Virus record (IMG/VR): IMGVR_UViG_2880389630_000006
Source: a virus
Lineage: Duplodnaviria; Heunggongvirae; Uroviricota; Caudoviricetes
DNA: 41,015 nt
Reading direction: 5' to 3' (one strand)
Each line of letters begins with the position of its first letter. The stretch's first letter is position 1. Made by a program: the position numbers and the translations under genes. The notes beneath the pieces are model-generated. The model saw only the letters and a list, made by a program, of their open reading frames with translations, was not told where the DNA came from and searched no databases. This document shows, one piece after another, positions 3,176 to 25,799 of this stretch.

Positions 3176-5827
3176 TTATTTTGATTCCAATAGTTCGAGT
3201 CGCTCTTCAATACGATCGCATCGACGGCGCTGATATGCAGCCTCAAGCCAAGCGCACTGGTCAGGCCGTATACCCCATGAACTACCCGCTTTTTTAACCA
3301 GCCTCTGTTCTCCGGTGTCATATTCGACGGTGACCAACTCACCAGACGTATCGGTAATCTCTTTAGTCGCGATTACCGGCTCAAAAATATCATCCCACTC
3401 GTCATAGCAAAGAAGGCCAAATCTGGTTCCATCAATTCCGTGCGCCAAGAATACATCCCTTACCTGCTGAGCCATGACGCCAAAATGCCATCTGGCACCA
3501 TCGCCCTTCATGGATATAGCGTCGAGCCATCGATACGCCACAACAGAAATATCGCCCCAGGCATCAAGAATGCTGTCTCTATCAGAAGAAAGCATTTCAC
3601 TTAAATCTGATATTGCCTCGGGATTGGTTTTCAGCGTGGCATCTGATGAAACGGTTGGGGCATTTGCAAAGTAGGCGTCTTTAATACGAAACGATGCCTG
3701 ACCAAAATTATAGGTATTGTCAGCAAACGGGCGAAGACCTGTATCATAAAACCGCCAGCGTATGGTTCCTCCCAATGCTGTCGGGTCGCTGTTGCATGCA
3801 ATATCCACCGTGGTGGCAGACCTAAACACAGAAGAACTACCGCCCAATACCAAGCTATTTGCGCTAGCTGTAGCCTGCTGGTCAAGGACCAATATTTTCT
3901 GAGAGTTTGTAGTTGCACCGGCATATGATGATGCAGTGATGCGGTTTAATTGGTTTGTATCAGGATCTGCGTTTTGCTGAATGGTTAAGTTAGATGCCCA
4001 CTGTGCCGGTCGCTGGCGCACAAATACAAAGTCACCAGAAGGATTAGTTGCAACCAAATAACTAATGCCACTATCAGATGAATAATAGTTGACTATAAAA
4101 GTCTGATTATTCGCATTCAGTATTTCAACATATGTGCTGGAAGGGATTGCCACGCCAGATATATCAGCAATGCTGACAGTCCCTGTGTAAAAATTAAATG
4201 CCTTCTGACTCATCTCCTGCATATAGCGAAGAATTTCAGTCATGTTAGTGAACAACGTACCATCTACAGGGTTAACAATCCCCTTCGCACTACGGGGATA
4301 TACCCCAATGCTCGCGTGATCGATATCAAATCCGCGGTAAAGCCTGGATGCAGGTGTAAAATCGATAGCATCTTTATCAGTGGAGAAATCTTCGAAAATA
4401 ACCAAACCTGAATTGTAAGGTTCAGAGCCAGTTCTTTCCTGATGAATGTAAAGTGAATAAATGGATTTTCCATCCTGAGAAACACAAACGCCTTCATTTT
4501 CTATGCGAGTGACGTTCAATCCTGCGGCTTTCATTAAATCCATCATGGCCTGAGGATGAAGCATTGATTCAGTTCGCTTTGTACCGTCAGGGTTAAAAAC
4601 TTTGCTGCCCTGATATTCGTTATATCCTGCGCTTCCTGCCCCATCAGCTATGAAGCCGCCATAGCCGCAGACAAAGTAGTTATCACCTACCGCAATACCC
4701 TGACGCTTGTTGAAATAAGGCGCATAAGGTGAGGTGCTTTTAGTTACATACCCAACATCATGTAACGGCAGCGTTATAGTTGACAGGCGATTGAAACCAC
4801 TGTCGAACACTGCAAGTACAGTTCTTGTGATTTTCTGTCCTACTTCTGGCGCATTCTGCTCAACGAGCCATATACCTCTTCTGTAGCTGAACTGGTTGAA
4901 TAATCCAACATCATGGTTTTGTACAAGAGGCAGATTGCTTCCGTATAATGCCCCCTCCATATTAAATTCACGCAGTATTCCGTTTGTGTGACCAACAAAC
5001 ATTTTTTTGGGGCCATAGTCTGACGTAACCACGATTCCTTCAGCAGCGAAGCCTGGGCCGCCAGCCTGAACATAGAAATAACCTTGATAAATACCAGATA
5101 TGTTAAATACTGCGACGACATTATTCGTCTGTTTAGGCTCAAATGGATAAGTGATGTATATCAAATCTTCGCTAACGCAGAATCCTTGAGGATACATATA
5201 AGTTGCTGACGGGTTAGCAGCCATAATCGCATCATATTCAGGAAAAAGAAGCGGCATCGTAGCTACAATCTTTCTTTGGTGATTTGTAAAAATATCGTTT
5301 TTAGCGCTGTTAGGTGTAGGCGTTACACCTCCAGTAAAAAGATCATCAACATAACCTTTATTGACAGCATCGTTTCTGTCAGTGGCATTTGCTAGATTTG
5401 ATATCTTATTATTTTTTGCATCATAATAGTTAGCCAGAATGCTTGGTTTTATAAGTGCTAACCTCATCCATGAAAAACACTTTTGAATAAGCATTGTCAG
5501 TTTATCGAACGCGTCTTCATGTACCTCAGCGAAGAACTTACCCTGATTACGCAAATCAGTATCCTGCGTAACCGGGAGCTCTCGTGATATAGAAATATGA
5601 TAACCGTTAGCCAACGCCTTCGACAGAATTACATTACCGCCATTATATCCTCCAGCATTGGTTACTGTGTAGTCAGTATCCAGAACCAATTCTGTTACGT
5701 TCCCGTTCAGGTCAGACACCTGAACAACCAGGTCGGATTTTTTGAAAATACGGAAGGTATACGGAAATGATGTCGTAGCTCCGTTACCGGTGTATTCGTT
5801 GTGGTCAACTTCGGTTGAGACCGTCAT
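3176..5827 (-). CDS. Tailspike / tail fibre with C-terminal intramolecular chaperone (peptidase S74-like) domain
   Basis: 883 aa. C-terminus (GDISVVAYRWLDAISMKGDGARWHFGVMAQQVRDVFLAHGIDGTRFGLLCYDEWDD) matches the auto-cleaving chaperone domain of endosialidase/tail-fibre proteins. Central domain of unknown specificity. Confidence 0.8.
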   Translation of the reverse strand: MTVSTEVDHNEYTGNGATTSFPYTFRIFKKSDLVVQVSDLNGNVTELVLDTDYTVTNAGGYNGGNVILSKALANGYHISISRELPVTQDTDLRNQGKFFAEVHEDAFDKLTMLIQKCFSWMRLALIKPSILANYYDAKNNKISNLANATDRNDAVNKGYVDDLFTGGVTPTPNSAKNDIFTNHQRKIVATMPLLFPEYDAIMAANPSATYMYPQGFCVSEDLIYITYPFEPKQTNNVVAVFNISGIYQGYFYVQAGGPGFAAEGIVVTSDYGPKKMFVGHTNGILREFNMEGALYGSNLPLVQNHDVGLFNQFSYRRGIWLVEQNAPEVGQKITRTVLAVFDSGFNRLSTITLPLHDVGYVTKSTSPYAPYFNKRQGIAVGDNYFVCGYGGFIADGAGSAGYNEYQGSKVFNPDGTKRTESMLHPQAMMDLMKAAGLNVTRIENEGVCVSQDGKSIYSLYIHQERTGSEPYNSGLVIFEDFSTDKDAIDFTPASRLYRGFDIDHASIGVYPRSAKGIVNPVDGTLFTNMTEILRYMQEMSQKAFNFYTGTVSIADISGVAIPSSTYVEILNANNQTFIVNYYSSDSGISYLVATNPSGDFVFVRQRPAQWASNLTIQQNADPDTNQLNRITASSYAGATTNSQKILVLDQQATASANSLVLGGSSSVFRSATTVDIACNSDPTALGGTIRWRFYDTGLRPFADNTYNFGQASFRIKDAYFANAPTVSSDATLKTNPEAISDLSEMLSSDRDSILDAWGDISVVAYRWLDAISMKGDGARWHFGVMAQQVRDVFLAHGIDGTRFGLLCYDEWDDIFEPVIATKEITDTSGELVTVEYDTGEQRLVKKAGSSWGIRPDQCAWLEAAYQRRRCDRIEERLELLESK

Positions 5828-6327: not shown

Positions 6328-6592
6328 TTTACATCGCACTCCTCTTGTGCCATAGTAATCAGGCACTGGCAAAATCCAGTGCCGGGATTGGCGTCCCGGG
6401 TTACTACAGAGGCACATATGCCGCATAAGCGGTTTTTTTATGTGTAAAGCGCACCTATTCTATGGTGGGCTGTGTGGGGGCACCGAAAGGTGCGCCGGGT
6501 CCTTTGTAGCCGGTTACGCCAACCCTGCACAGTTCACCACCAACCGATTGGCGTCGGTAGTGGTGATTAACCTAACTACAAAGGTGATCACT

Positions 6593-22535: not shown

Positions 22536-22828
22536 TCCTGTTCACTGGCCTCTTTGGCCATCTTCAAATACTGTTCAGGGCAATGCGCCATAACGCGCTG
22601 AAACAGTTCCAGCGCCAGATTGCGTTGCCCCTCATTAAATGCCATTGCCATAGCGTCCATCGGTGAGATAGCGGAAAACACACGGCCTTTCTCCAGCACC
22701 GACCAGACAACGCGACGCCCCTGTTCACTGCTCATGACAAAGCGAATGTCATCAATTTCACGCTGTGCCATGTCACGTTGCTTACGGGCGTTTTCTTCTT
22801 TCAGTTGATCATCTTCGTAATCTGTCAT
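22532..22828 (-). CDS. Small head-assembly-associated protein
   Basis: 98 aa ORF overlapping portal stop and scaffold start (translational coupling). Confidence 0.45.
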   Translation of the reverse strand: MTDYEDDQLKEENARKQRDMAQREIDDIRFVMSSEQGRRVVWSVLEKGRVFSAISPMDAMAMAFNEGQRNLALELFQRVMAHCPEQYLKMAKEASEQE

Positions 22829-24504
22829 TGTGATTGCCCACCCTGACCACTAACTGCATTCGCCATAGCTGACAAAACACTCGGATCCGAAGTTTTAGCT
22901 TCGCTTAGCGTCTTGGCGCCCTGTGCCGCCGCCATTCCCATCGCCATCATTTGTTGCTGCTGTTGCTGCTGTGCCCGTTGCTGGCGAGCCTGCTCAACCT
23001 GTTCCTGCGGAACAATGACGGTTGGAGACACTCCGGACATATCAGCGAATGCATCGATCGCCTGATCAACATTGAGTTTGTCGAGAGCTTCTGGTTTCGC
23101 TTGCGCAAGTTGACCAATGAAGTTGACCGTAGACGCCAGACTGGACAGGCCGATAGACTTCTGCGCCTGAGCCATGACGGAAATGTATTCGACCTTCAGG
23201 GGCATACCTTCCATCGCGTCAGGCGGTGGCGGCAGCATGTTTTTACGCACCATCATCGAGAAAGCGCGGTCAATGAGAGGATTAAGACATTCGTCGTTCA
23301 GACGCTCCAGAACCGGCCCCAACATCAGAAGTTTTTCTTCTTTCATTTCGATCACCGCTTCAACAGGCATCGAGCGGGTATTGATGTTCTGCAACATCAT
23401 GAACAGATCGACAAAGTAGGCGCTGTTAATGATTTGACGAGTGTCCTGAATGTCTGCCACCAAATCTGCTGTACTGGGGTTAACCAGATAAGCAGGCCTG
23501 AAGCCATCCTGACCAGTAATCTGATCGATATACGTGATGTCGCCAGGAAGAAGGGAGGCGCGCTGATTCTTGAGGGAAGTCGGAGCAACCATCGGCGGAT
23601 TGGTGGCTTTATCAATCAACTGCGACTTGCGCTTCTGGAGAAGCTGCAATGCCTTAACAGGTCCAAGCGCCAGCATACCCGGGCATGATGATCCATAAAC
23701 ATCTTCGCCGTTAACTTCCCAGCGCGGAGCCATAATTGGAAACTCATCGAATCCGGACTCACGCAACAACTTGTCGTTATCTCCACCAACCTCGTAATAA
23801 ACCGATTTGAATGGCTTGTTCTTGCTATCCAGCTTCGATGTATCGCGGTCAATGTTCGGGTAAACCGAATGCATCACTTCGATCCACTTCTCGTAGGTGC
23901 CGCTTTCCCACATGCTTTTTACGGATTCGCTGACGTTATTTAGCCCGAACTCCTGAACAAGCTGACGAACAGTCATAGAGAACTTGCGAAAACAGGTGTC
24001 AACACTGCCACGAGGTGAGTTAGCCAGGTAGTAACTGCCTATCGGGAATGGCATTGTGCGAATGATGTCCTCGTCATCCTCCAGCACTGCCATTGCACCA
24101 GTGCTGTATGTGCCGAGGCTTCCGTATAACTGCGGAAGAGACTGGTAGAGATTCGAATTATTGAACATATCGTTCATGCGGTTCTGAACTGCCTCAAGCC
24201 ACAACTTAACAGGGCCATAATCCATCATTTCAGGATCTGGCGTAGCCAGGCGAAACCACGGACGCGCAGGGCTTGTGATGCCTGACATCATGCCGCTGGC
24301 GAGAGTGCGCGCCGCCATAGTCCCGGTCGAATCAATAATGCGTGTATTGCGTCGATCGTTACGGTTGACCTCAGAAGTCAGAAAGCGGGAACCACGCGGG
24401 TTGATGTAATCACTCAACTCGCGCCAGTGCGGCTCGAACGACTGACGCTCGCTTTCAAGTTGTGCGAACTGTTTGTTCAATCGCTCTTTAGTTGTTTCCG
24501 CCAT
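22825..24504 (-). CDS. Portal protein
   Basis: 559 aa, first large gene after terminase; Gln-rich C-terminal tail (QQRAQQQQQQQMMAMGMAAAQ) typical of podovirus portals. Confidence 0.7.
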   Translation of the reverse strand: MAETTKERLNKQFAQLESERQSFEPHWRELSDYINPRGSRFLTSEVNRNDRRNTRIIDSTGTMAARTLASGMMSGITSPARPWFRLATPDPEMMDYGPVKLWLEAVQNRMNDMFNNSNLYQSLPQLYGSLGTYSTGAMAVLEDDEDIIRTMPFPIGSYYLANSPRGSVDTCFRKFSMTVRQLVQEFGLNNVSESVKSMWESGTYEKWIEVMHSVYPNIDRDTSKLDSKNKPFKSVYYEVGGDNDKLLRESGFDEFPIMAPRWEVNGEDVYGSSCPGMLALGPVKALQLLQKRKSQLIDKATNPPMVAPTSLKNQRASLLPGDITYIDQITGQDGFRPAYLVNPSTADLVADIQDTRQIINSAYFVDLFMMLQNINTRSMPVEAVIEMKEEKLLMLGPVLERLNDECLNPLIDRAFSMMVRKNMLPPPPDAMEGMPLKVEYISVMAQAQKSIGLSSLASTVNFIGQLAQAKPEALDKLNVDQAIDAFADMSGVSPTVIVPQEQVEQARQQRAQQQQQQQMMAMGMAAAQGAKTLSEAKTSDPSVLSAMANAVSGQGGQSQ

Positions 24505-24518
24505 TTCAATGACTCCGG

Positions 24519-24725
24519 TTACTGACCAAGCAGCGTTTTACCGCTGGTATTAGCGGTTGATGTGTCGCCCTGAGAACCGGTAAGCAGCGTAGAACTACGA
24601 CCAGCAGCAGCGCGACGGCGACGTGTTTCTTCGTCGCGGGCATCAACAACGGCGGCATCCTGCTCCTGTGGTGCTGCCTGAACTTCTGGTGTTGCAGGCA
24701 CTGATGGTGAGCTACCCATGCACAT
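24519..24725 (-). CDS. Small ORF upstream of portal
   Basis: 68 aa with GGAG SD 9 nt upstream; Ala/Thr/Arg-rich; may be spurious. Confidence 0.3.
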   Translation of the reverse strand: MCMGSSPSVPATPEVQAAPQEQDAAVVDARDEETRRRRAAAGRSSTLLTGSQGDTSTANTSGKTLLGQ

Positions 24726-24793: not shown

Positions 24794-24831
24794 TTGACAT
24801 TTAACGCGTGAATTATTACCTTTCAGGTAAC
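24794..24831 (+). promoter_or_regulatory. Putative promoter (TTGACA -35) with overlapping operator ATTACC-TTTCA-GGTAAC upstream of the tRNA
   Basis: TTGACA at 24794-24799; the 16-bp operator core at 24815-24830 is identical to the site at 5931. The -10 element is ambiguous. Confidence 0.4.
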
Positions 24832-25152
24832 TAAAGAGCTCATTCTGGTTACTAACCTGACTGGCTTGTCGTTAAATTAAACAGGTGGAGTGAGCTTTTA
24901 TTTTGAGCAGTACGGCGTATGGCACATGCGCCGATAGCGGTCTGGATACGTTTAAGGGGCACCCTCCCTTGCTCGGGCAAACGAACCAGGTAGCCGGAAT
25001 GTGCAAGTCGAGCGGTTTTATTCCGCGCACGGGGATTCACCATCCCGGCGATTCGGTGTGACGCCTCGGAAGAGACGAGGGTACAACGATGAGAGCATTT
25101 ATGGAGCCGCGACAAAGTGTGGCGCCTTAACAGGCTAAGTGCTCTCAGCGTT

Positions 25153-25229
25153 GTGGCATTAGCTCAGTCGGACAGAGCAACCGCCTTCTAAGCGGTTGGT
25201 CGCAGGTTCGAATCCTGCATGCCACGCCA
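25153..25229 (+). tRNA. tRNA-Arg (anticodon UCU)
   Basis: Hand-folded cloverleaf: 7-bp acceptor stem GTGGCAT/ATGCCAC, D-arm gctc-agtcggaca-gagc, anticodon stem accgc/gcggt with loop CT-TCT-AA, T-arm gcagg-TTCGAAT-cctgc, discriminator G plus encoded CCA. Resembles but is not identical to enterobacterial argU. Confidence 0.85.
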
Positions 25230-25427
25230 GAATCACGCCTAAGGACCGTGATGCCAGAAGTTCCAGGGGCTTGGCGGTGATGGTTTCCCTTGAAGGACTA
25301 TCACCGCCCTTTTTACAGCAGGACGCCATTGCGATGACTTCATGCTGTAAACCCGTACAGCCACGGAAGGCATAACTCATTGCTTCCAGTTCGCCCGGTT
25401 CGCCGGGCATTTTTTTAAGGTGAGATT

Positions 25428-25799
25428 ATGAACGACAAGCAAATCGAAAAAGAAATCGTTGAGAAAGGCAAAACGGCACCGCGCGTTACGCCAGACCATA
25501 TCGAAGGCATTATTGCTCAGGAGGCATATTTCACAGCAGAAGATGGTGCCTTTGGCAAAGCCATAAAAGCGAAACATACTGGCGGAGAGGTAAACTACCA
25601 GCCGCACGAATCACTTTCTCTGCTGACGTTCTGCGTCCTGGTGCTGCGCAACGGCTTCACCGTCACCGGAGAGAGCGCCTGTGCAAGCCCGGAAAACTTT
25701 GATGCAGAAATTGGTCGGAAGATTGCCCGGCAGAATGCTGTAAACAAAATCTGGATGCTCGAAGGTTACTTGCTGAAGCAGAAGCTAAGCGAGCAATAA
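25428..25799 (+). CDS. Conserved phage protein, Gp49-like (tentative)
   Basis: 123 aa on the strand opposite the flanking terminase/portal genes; family assignment from memory of the Gp49-type signature (LTFCVLVLRNGFTVTGES), unverified. Confidence 0.45.
   Translation: MNDKQIEKEIVEKGKTAPRVTPDHIEGIIAQEAYFTAEDGAFGKAIKAKHTGGEVNYQPHESLSLLTFCVLVLRNGFTVTGESACASPENFDAEIGRKIARQNAVNKIWMLEGYLLKQKLSEQ

Follow-up and report, generated by a model that had tools for sequence, protein, structure and literature searches.

What is encoded in the long stretch between an early promoter and a tRNA gene in the DNA of a temperate phage? The question was raised by a preliminary description of a 41,015-nt sequence (IMG/VR record IMGVR_UViG_2880389630_000006; the window, by which we mean the whole of this DNA), in which no credible protein gene was seen between an assumed promoter and a tRNA and a structured non-coding RNA was suspected over the entire interval 24832-25152. 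The DNA is that of an Escherichia coli prophage of the phiV10/epsilon15 type (Uetakevirus); over the 711 nt around the element described here, identity is 100% with E. coli 1517k and ~98% with phage phiV10. We find that 24912-25152 (+ strand) is almost certainly a member of a structured RNA family without a match in Rfam that occurs in temperate enterobacterial phages. Compensatory changes are abundant, and sequence and structure are kept in unrelated phages. The suspicion was thus correct in kind and too generous in extent, since only 24912-25152 is conserved and the preceding 24829-24911 is a poorly conserved leader. The element, as we call it, is ~240 nt long and consists of a core followed by a long hairpin, the tip of which is hypervariable.

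The covariance-model search of Rfam that had been recommended as a check gave no match. With Rfam 15 nothing was found within 24832-25152, neither at the gathering score nor at E <= 10, and in the whole window only tRNA, C4 and isrK scored above the gathering score. This negative result means that the family is missing from Rfam 15 and is not evidence against an RNA. The second check, a comparison of homologous regions for compensatory base changes, revealed many of them. Folding of the single sequence gave z = -2.5, on both strands, which alone is weak evidence; the comparative data put the structure beyond chance. The element therefore is an RNA family lacking in Rfam 15, which we did not find described in the literature searched; in kind it is a phage early-leader RNA or a stable structured RNA.

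Helices, covariation and strand

The core is made up of the helices P1, P2/P2a, a variable P3, P4 with a pseudoknot, and P5 (Table 1), between which lie the near-invariant linkers AGCGGUC, the 19-mer GGUAGCCGGAAUGUGCAAG, GGCG and GGUGUGAC. Two alignments were examined: A2, a MAFFT alignment of 39 diverse cores on which a hand-drawn structure with seven helices was tested, and A3, a model-guided alignment of 100 matches with 77 distinct rows. In each of them 93.8% of the pair cells are paired, as compared with 27-44% (A2) and 31-41% (A3) when the partners were slid by 1-3 columns as a control. Two-sided changes were observed at 17 of 36 pairs in A2 and at 16 of 28 in A3; counted by cells they amount to 107 in A2, for which shuffling predicts 34, and to 258 in A3. 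The covariation score was reached by none of 500 shuffles in A2 and by none of 500 in A3. P3 was excluded from the scoring because it could not be aligned consistently.

In helix P1 the fifth pair alternates between G-C and A-U (16 versus 22 sequences in A2, 48 versus 27 in A3), and helix P4 has two-sided changes at three of its four pairs in A2 (99.4% paired) and at all four in A3 (98.1% paired). The pseudoknot shows a compensatory change from CACC/GGUG to AACC/GGUU in four sequences. P4 and P5 are the two hairpins that the preliminary description had named; they are present 1-3 nt from where it had placed them (25032-25035/25043-25046 and 25064-25080), and both covary. The GUGC of the 19-mer (25001-25004) could in addition pair with the GCAC in the loop of helix P1 (24922-24925) or with the GCAC at 25026-25029; these long-range pairings are invariant and are, therefore, neither supported nor refuted by covariation.

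The folded molecule is the RNA of the + strand, because the G-U pairs, which are frequent on this strand only (for example in 37-39 of 39 sequences at two positions), would become A-C mismatches on the other one. The G>C skew across the element agrees with this assignment.

Existing annotations could be taken to mean that there is no RNA here at all, and that the region is a protein gene or exerts its control at the level of the DNA. In mEp460 a minus-strand protein, mEp460_037 (L002 2443-2811), is annotated over the structured RNA; in phiV10 the minus-strand annotation PhiV10p04 covers the adjacent tRNA and terminator; and the authors who described sRNA-17, an RNA of mEp460-like prophages, treat the DNA upstream of it as its promoter, with an ArcA site (PMC7719688). 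In the window PhiV10p04 corresponds to an 83-aa open reading frame (ORF) on the minus strand (25159-25410), antisense to the tRNA-Arg and terminator T1, that matches PHROG 4647 (8.4e-53). The reading is contradicted by the frame, Pfam and covariation tests. Core lengths fall into the three mod-3 classes as 33/31/13, variable sites are spread evenly over the codon phases without a 3-nt periodicity, and a Pfam search of the ORFs in the interval gave no match; since indels do not preserve a frame, a protein gene is ruled out here. DNA binding sites do not account for compensatory changes in which the G-U pairs are specific to one strand, the core is conserved where sRNA-17 is missing, and no sigma70-like promoter is evident by eye just upstream of the sRNA-17 5' end. 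We consider it highly improbable that the region acts in either of these ways. Because it shows no coding signal, the minus-strand 'hypothetical proteins' of mEp460 and phiV10 are probably artefacts, and so, probably, is the entire PHROG 4647 protein family. Of the earlier statements on coding, the absence of a credible protein is borne out by the Pfam and frame results; that all ORFs are on the minus strand is not correct, two short + strand ORFs with TTG and GTG starts being present.

Table 1. Features of the element and of its surroundings in the window
Feature	Position	Strand	Observation
Conserved core, ~160-176 nt	24912-25087	+	sole window match to covariance model R1: 146.2 bits, E 2.6e-40
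Helix P1, hairpin CGGCGUAU-GGCAC-AUGCGCCG	24913-24920 with 24926-24933	+	8 pairs, 97-98% paired
Helix P2	24937-24944 with 24987-24994	+	100% paired; C-G/U-A and G-C/A-U switches
Helix P2a, inside P2, variable tip	24948-24952 with 24980-24984	+	5 of 5 pairs with two-sided changes
Near-invariant 19-mer GGUAGCCGGAAUGUGCAAG	24989-25007	+	
P3, hairpin variable in sequence and length (window GCGG/CCGC)	25012-25026	+	per-sequence folds
Helix P4, GGGA/UCCC	25032-25035 with 25043-25046	+	H-type pseudoknot region 25032-25058
Pseudoknot, P4 loop CACC with GGUG	25038-25041 with 25055-25058	+	98.6% paired
P5 hairpin CCUCG-GAAGAGA-CGAGG, conserved purine loop	25064-25068 with 25076-25080	+	4 of 5 pairs with two-sided changes
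3' domain, long closing helix around hypervariable tip	25082-25101 with 25136-25155	+	window fold -37.4 kcal/mol
Portal gene	22825-24504	minus	
Small gp3-like gene	24519-24725	minus	
Early sigma70-type promoter	TTGACA 24794-24799, 17-nt spacer, TACCTT 24817-24822	+	read from sequence
Operator-like palindrome TTACC-N5-GGTAA	24816-24830		overlaps -10 hexamer
Predicted transcription start	near 24829	+	
5' leader	24829-24911	+	poorly conserved; length varies among relatives
tRNA-Arg(UCU)	25153-25229	+	fused directly to the element
Intrinsic terminator T1	25273-25308/25316	+	14-bp stem and U tract
Intrinsic terminator T2	25393-25408/25416	+	abuts ribosome binding site of next gene
Gp49/Sf6 gene 66-family gene	25428-25799	+	Pfam PF13876, 8.9e-35; RefSeq annotation of identical prophage

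The 3' domain, the tRNA junction and sRNA-17

RNAalifold applied to the 3' domain returned the outer helix only, the subtypes differing by a one-base bulge, and duplex energies were therefore calculated for each sequence separately. By this measure a duplex of 17-20 bp is kept in 29 distinct sequence variants with -17 to -30 kcal/mol. Variants that differ in sequence are, for example, GAUGAGAGCA/UGCUCUCAGC, AGGUAAGAGCA/UGCUCUUUCC, GAGAGCGCAC/GUGCGCUCCC and AAAGAGCG/CGCUCUUU. The 3' strands are found 43-204 nt downstream of the core end, from which it follows that the apical inserts are of widely differing length. Within the 3' domain of the window there is a 13-codon ORF, MRAFMEPRQSVAP (25089-25130, + strand), with GAGGG ahead of it, which is common to mEp460-type relatives; it is probably not functional, since other subtypes lack the AUG.

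The 3' strand of the closing helix (...UGCUCUCAGCGUUGUGG) continues into the tRNA-Arg, the GUG at 25153-25155 being common to the helix and to the start of the tRNA. The same junction is present in tRNA-Arg-linked relatives with different inserts, in which the tRNA starts at offsets of 164-230 nt, and its sequence was read directly in the loci L013, L074 and L083. With the tRNA fused to the 3' end of the element, cleavage by RNase P at 25152/25153 should set that end.

An RNA end at the equivalent position had already been mapped by others. sRNA-17, 193 nt long, was mapped by rapid amplification of cDNA ends (RACE) and by Northern blotting in an mEp460-like prophage of E. coli K1 RS218, and according to its authors has no homologue in Rfam (PMC7719688). 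Via the supplementary alignment of that study we located it on mEp460 at L002 2738-2930, from GTTGTGGTGAATG... to ...CTGGTACCGCTCTTTT, which is exactly 193 nt. It starts (GUUGUGG...) with what in the element is the 3' strand of the closing helix, 2 nt from the equivalent of the tRNA-Arg start (window 25151-25153), and its 3' end is at the terminator after the element. That the element is sRNA-17 itself can be rejected: the two belong to the same transcription unit in mEp460-type prophages, but sRNA-17 is the downstream neighbour and overlaps the element only in the GUUGUGG strand, and the element as such was not recognised in that study (PMC7719688). The window contains no homologue of sRNA-17 (best match 13 nt, E 0.26); the tRNA-Arg occupies its position. 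Thus the module beyond the 3' boundary is interchangeable and may be tRNA-Arg, sRNA-17 or others. Two further kinds of published RNA were rejected as candidates: svsR is a 77-nt RNA within the 3' end of cI, and the Pas sRNAs are base-pairing sRNAs.

Because no promoter was seen upstream of it, the 5' end of sRNA-17 is most simply explained as a processing site. Probably, therefore, sRNA-17 arises by processing from the 3' part of a longer early transcript and is not the product of a promoter of its own, and what was considered its promoter and ArcA site is probably the DNA of the element RNA. The RACE end is in vivo evidence that this strand is transcribed and that the 3' boundary of the element is a true RNA end. 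The 95-fold rise of yfdP in the sRNA-17 deletion is uninterpretable, because the CmR cassette replaced the terminator.

The GUUGUGG strand pairs upstream with CAAC, by which the element hairpin is closed. Alternatively it can pair downstream, with CACCACAAC in sRNA-17 or with the 3' strand of the acceptor stem in the tRNA. Such a switch from the element hairpin to a cargo helix would be expected if the element were a platform for maturation that folds or presents its 3' cargo, be it tRNA-Arg or sRNA-17, and the T-arm-like hairpins (GGTTCAATTCC) in some 3'-domain inserts would fit as well. We regard this function as unlikely: in phage P1 the tRNA is on the 5' side and the element has no 3' domain, most members are without recognisable cargo, and an invariant core of 160 nt far exceeds the needs of a processing signal. 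The T-arm-like hairpins were observed in the inserts of L013 and L040 (GGTTCAATTCC; GCTGGTTCAATTCCAGAC, GGTCCGTTCAATTCGGAC), and in L077 the element is followed by a sequence resembling a T arm plus acceptor. tRNA-like pieces seem to gather in this place.

Carriers and genomic contexts

Positions 24912-25156 of the window are ~83% identical to unannotated DNA in the unrelated lambdoid phages mEp460, cdtI, 2H10, Ayreon, Stx2c and some Stx2a phages, and 24912-25074 are ~80% identical to a stretch in P1, P7, D6, SJ46 and RCS47; shorter core matches are in Tyrion, in Klebsiella phage SopranoGao and in a phage listed as infecting Stenotrophomonas. P1, mEp460, Tyrion, SopranoGao and BUCT708 share the 19-mer without a single difference; these five had been located via BLAST and not via the motif, and model R1 matches all of them as well. 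Over IMG/VR and genome loci R1 gave 100 matches. Scanning IMG/VR for the 19-mer yielded at least 120 loci, and an independent 5' motif, by which the 19-mer is almost always accompanied, recovered almost the same ones. A survey of 5426 complete E. coli genomes showed the core in 1839 of them, with 2470 occurrences in all and 554 of these on plasmids, and in the 12 rows listed out of 2118 E. coli records no annotated feature lies under it.

In species-representative genomes 13 of the 100 loci searched with the model are strong, and the 10 of them for which names were seen are all Enterobacteriaceae. These 100 loci had been preselected by a 16-mer, which is too short for 596 Gb (its 120 matches are mostly due to chance), and the taxonomic breadth is consequently under-sampled. 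Phage vB_SmeS_BUCT708 (L008) carries a full element between a repressor gene and a strong terminator; its recorded host is Stenotrophomonas, and it is the only member seen that is listed outside the Enterobacterales.

The contexts were compared for 130 loci. At 46 of them a tRNA directly abuts one end of the element. The idea that the element is an ordinary 5' leader of a tRNA was rejected, since at the other 84 the core is conserved without a tRNA within 1.2 kb, and since in phage P1 it lies 3' of the tRNA. Elements that adjoin tRNAs recall the stable RNAs C and D in the tRNA cluster of phage T4 and the GOLLD and ROOL RNAs beside phage tRNAs, all of them phage-borne, structured and next to tRNA genes. 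The element RNA is smaller, however, and in our sample almost confined to phages of Enterobacterales; GOLLD and ROOL are both in Rfam and do not match it.

In the lambdoid context (~62 of the 130 loci) a repressor gene of the S24 CI type precedes the element by ~120 nt on the same strand. The order is repressor gene, its terminator, operator-bearing promoters 6-55 nt upstream of helix P1, element, ~100 nt, a strong terminator and then yfdP, yfdQ (DUF2303) and yfdR, with no protein gene and no promoter-like site between element and yfdP. In epsilon15-like phages an early promoter is followed by the leader, the element, the tRNA-Arg fused at GUUGUGG, T1, T2 and the Gp49-family gene, and in P1-like phage-plasmids tRNA-Ile(CAU) is followed after 14 nt by the core, a short leader ORF and ban. 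SopranoGao has a promoter that ends 7 nt before helix P1, just after the terminator of the lysis genes and near the genome end; in BUCT708 the element is enclosed by a promoter and an immediate terminator.

The upstream promoter that the preliminary description had assumed can be recognised in the window as TTGACA/TACCTT. A simple consensus promoter scan made no call at this site; its hexamers, spacer length and palindrome are conserved in epsilon15-like relatives despite differing spacer sequence. The palindrome is present in the window, L068, L075, L085, L104, L026 and epsilon15, and the epsilon15 record has repressor and integration host factor (IHF) sites annotated in the corresponding stretch. 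To judge from these sequences TTGACA/TACCTT probably is a real early promoter, with control by a repressor being likely. The only protein gene of the rightward unit in the window is that of the Gp49/Sf6 gene 66 family, which converges on the large terminase gene. The U tract of T2 leads directly into its Shine-Dalgarno sequence and start codon (terminator to start, 25393-25430), so that in the window there is no space for a promoter between them. The arrangement of T2 before a Gp49-like gene recurs in Tyrion and epsilon15, and in the three epsilon15-like phages examined (window, Tyrion, epsilon15) expression of the gene would seem to need read-through of T2.

Two members are damaged. Of the element of epsilon15 (L001 1820-1923) only helix P1 and the start of P2 are kept (34.6 bits), and the terminator before the Gp49-like gene is retained. 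L027 has tandem copies on the minus strand (3993-4153 and 4800-4958), one intact and one decayed, in which the 19-mer and AGCGGUC are mutated; between the two copies lies an ORF of 166 aa in reverse orientation, which looks like an insertion with partial duplication. No second copy on the PR side was found in the window or in the lambdoid loci, L027 being the only case of a double, and the immunity region of e14 in E. coli K-12 is too short for the element. Elsewhere in the window (6363-6544, + strand) isrK (74.7 bits) lies beside C4 antisense RNA (79.5 bits), both above the Rfam gathering scores; we read the pair as an antirepressor control module of the immI type, like that of P1/P7, within an epsilon15-like prophage.

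A leader upstream of terminators, built of invariant junctions, a pseudoknot and variable peripheral stems as is typical of aptamers, and equipped in the GUUGUGG strand with alternative pairings, is reminiscent of a riboswitch. The core could then be the aptamer of a sensor for a metabolite, an ion or a host factor by which early transcription or translation of the phage is gated. The contexts speak against it. The downstream genes are functionally unrelated (tRNA, ban helicase, yfdP/Q/R, Gp49-like), the terminator follows at varying distances and in the window only after a whole tRNA, phage P1 has no terminator after the element, and no Rfam aptamer matches even at E <= 10. We hold a sensor to be improbable.

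Two possible functions: termination control or a stable RNA

What, then, is the function of the element? Our favoured reading, which we put forward tentatively, is that it acts in cis and lets RNA polymerase read through terminators, a role like that of HK022 put or of rrn/nut leaders, performed by an unrelated RNA. The element would be transcribed (+ strand) from an early, apparently repressor-controlled promoter, with RNase P defining its 3' end. The nascent RNA would act on its own RNA polymerase, possibly together with host Nus factors, and the polymerase, having become termination-resistant, would cross the untranslated element, the tRNA, T1 and T2 to reach the Gp49-family gene. In the lambdoid relatives the modified polymerase would reach the early-left operon without an N gene.

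This role is favoured because the element follows early promoters that seem to be under repressor control or sits in an early operon, because in every annotated context the next annotated gene downstream points the same way (counts of neighbour-ORF orientation are contaminated by spurious antisense ORFs), and because a terminator separates it from the next gene in the window and in several relatives. In L004 and BUCT708 the element is separated from the first gene by a strong terminator, downstream of which there is no promoter-like site; in L046, L089 and L027 a convergent membrane-protein gene has to be crossed before the next co-directional ORFs are reached, and in some phages this convergent gene is ~1 kb long. 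A further reason is that the lambdoid carriers show no N gene from the promoter to the early-left genes: at the lambdoid loci no N-type protein is annotated, and there is no protein gene in this interval. The lambdoid phage LLS, which has the same type of early-left operon, has no N homologue either and may use a put-like RNA (Casjens and colleagues, PMC12315714). The carriers mEp460 and mEp390 bear the prefix of a phage collection that was isolated as Nus-dependent (PMC11893012), although these two phages are not named in that report.

Like put of HK022, the lambdoid members are cis-encoded structured RNAs behind a PL-equivalent promoter with terminators downstream, and they lack an N gene in the interval examined for it, from that promoter to the early-left genes. 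Homology to put was rejected, BLAST, the motif and R1 all giving no match in HK022 24-32 kb. The two also differ in build and number: put has two stem-loops in ~70 nt and the element a ~160-nt core plus a long hairpin, and put sites are present in both early operons of HK022, the element only once and only in the PL-like position. Put promotes read-through of terminators independently of phage proteins, and mutations in the zinc-binding domain of the beta' subunit of RNA polymerase block it.

The likeness to rrn and nut leaders, in which boxA, boxB and boxC act together with Nus factors, would reside in boxA (GCUCUUUA), which in these leaders is single-stranded and adjoins a boxB hairpin. At L089 3363-3375 the core is followed by a hairpin and then by TGCTCTTTAACAA, which we take to be the rrn boxA consensus; a close variant is present in L046 (about 2246) and, as read by eye, in L033. 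L089 alone has a full boxA-like run of 12-13 nt, to which L046 comes near. A shorter sequence resembling boxA, UGCUCU(C/U), occurs in most 3' domains, including the 3' strand of the window (UGCUCUC, within the helix). In L089, L046 and L033 the core is followed by the convergent membrane-protein gene, and a terminator-like hairpin (A run/T run in L089) takes the place of the 3' domain. The purine loop of P5 begins with GAAGA, presumably the same start as that of the boxB loop of lambda nutL. Unlike in these leaders, the P5 loop has 7 nt instead of 5, the boxA-like bases are paired in most members, no N gene is present, and the large conserved core has no counterpart there. By the membership tests the element is not put and probably not a nut/rrn site; these are all the same its nearest functional analogues. 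It is possible, though less likely than not, that we are dealing with a second, independently evolved family of processive RNA antiterminators, which would work alone or via the boxA-like 3' strand and Nus factors, would drive the expression of early genes in N-less lambdoids including Stx2 phages, and would serve in P1 and in phages of the phiV10 type as well.

Several observations weigh against termination control. Each phage has a single copy, with none on the PR side. The version in phage P1 lacks the 3' domain and lies in mid-operon after tRNA-Ile, with no terminator before ban. In epsilon15 the element is truncated (34.6 bits), yet T2 and the Gp49-like gene are kept. In SopranoGao the element, with a promoter to itself, follows the lysis genes close to the end of the genome. 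sRNA-17 accumulates as an RNA that ends at the following terminator (PMC7719688), so that in cultures of the lysogen termination at this site is not abolished. Finally, the boxA-like bases are engaged in pairing in most members.

Almost as likely as control of termination in cis is a stable RNA that acts in trans. It would be released by tRNA-type processing, would stand alone and would bind a conserved host factor or RNA, for example as a sponge, a decoy or an anti-defence RNA made first after infection; we rate this, too, as no better than possible. Its processing might, equally tentatively, be by RNase P at the 3' end (window), by tRNA 3' maturation at the 5' end (P1) and by RNase III or RNase E at the long helix in other members. 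The tRNAs abutting the element at more than a third of the loci (46 of 130), the gap of only 14 nt to tRNA-Ile in phage P1 and the RACE 5' end of sRNA-17 at 2 nt from the equivalent junction are all in line with such a release. So are the unrelated map positions that the module takes in phages which are themselves unrelated, the separate promoter that it has in SopranoGao, a promoter and an immediate terminator in BUCT708, and the interchangeable downstream cargo (tRNA-Arg, sRNA-17, others); the long invariant single strands resemble a binding surface. On the other hand, the element is not known to have a partner or to accumulate as a stable species, many members have ~100 nt between element and terminator, and a free-standing RNA would not need to be co-directional with the next annotated gene in every annotated context.

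Whatever its function, phage P1, Shiga-toxin phages and O157 typing phages, all heavily studied, share a strongly conserved RNA of ~240 nt with covariation support that is missing from Rfam, has no annotation in any of the rows listed and is sometimes overlaid by dubious protein annotations. From its position behind promoters that seem to be under repressor control or in an early operon, this RNA probably is one of the earliest to appear upon infection or induction. sRNA-17 has to be reread as probably not being the product of its own promoter. If the element controls termination, it would explain early-left expression in a large class of N-less lambdoids and would be a second model, after put, for the RNA-directed modification of RNA polymerase. 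If it acts in trans, a third of E. coli genomes would harbor a candidate host-takeover or anti-defence RNA.

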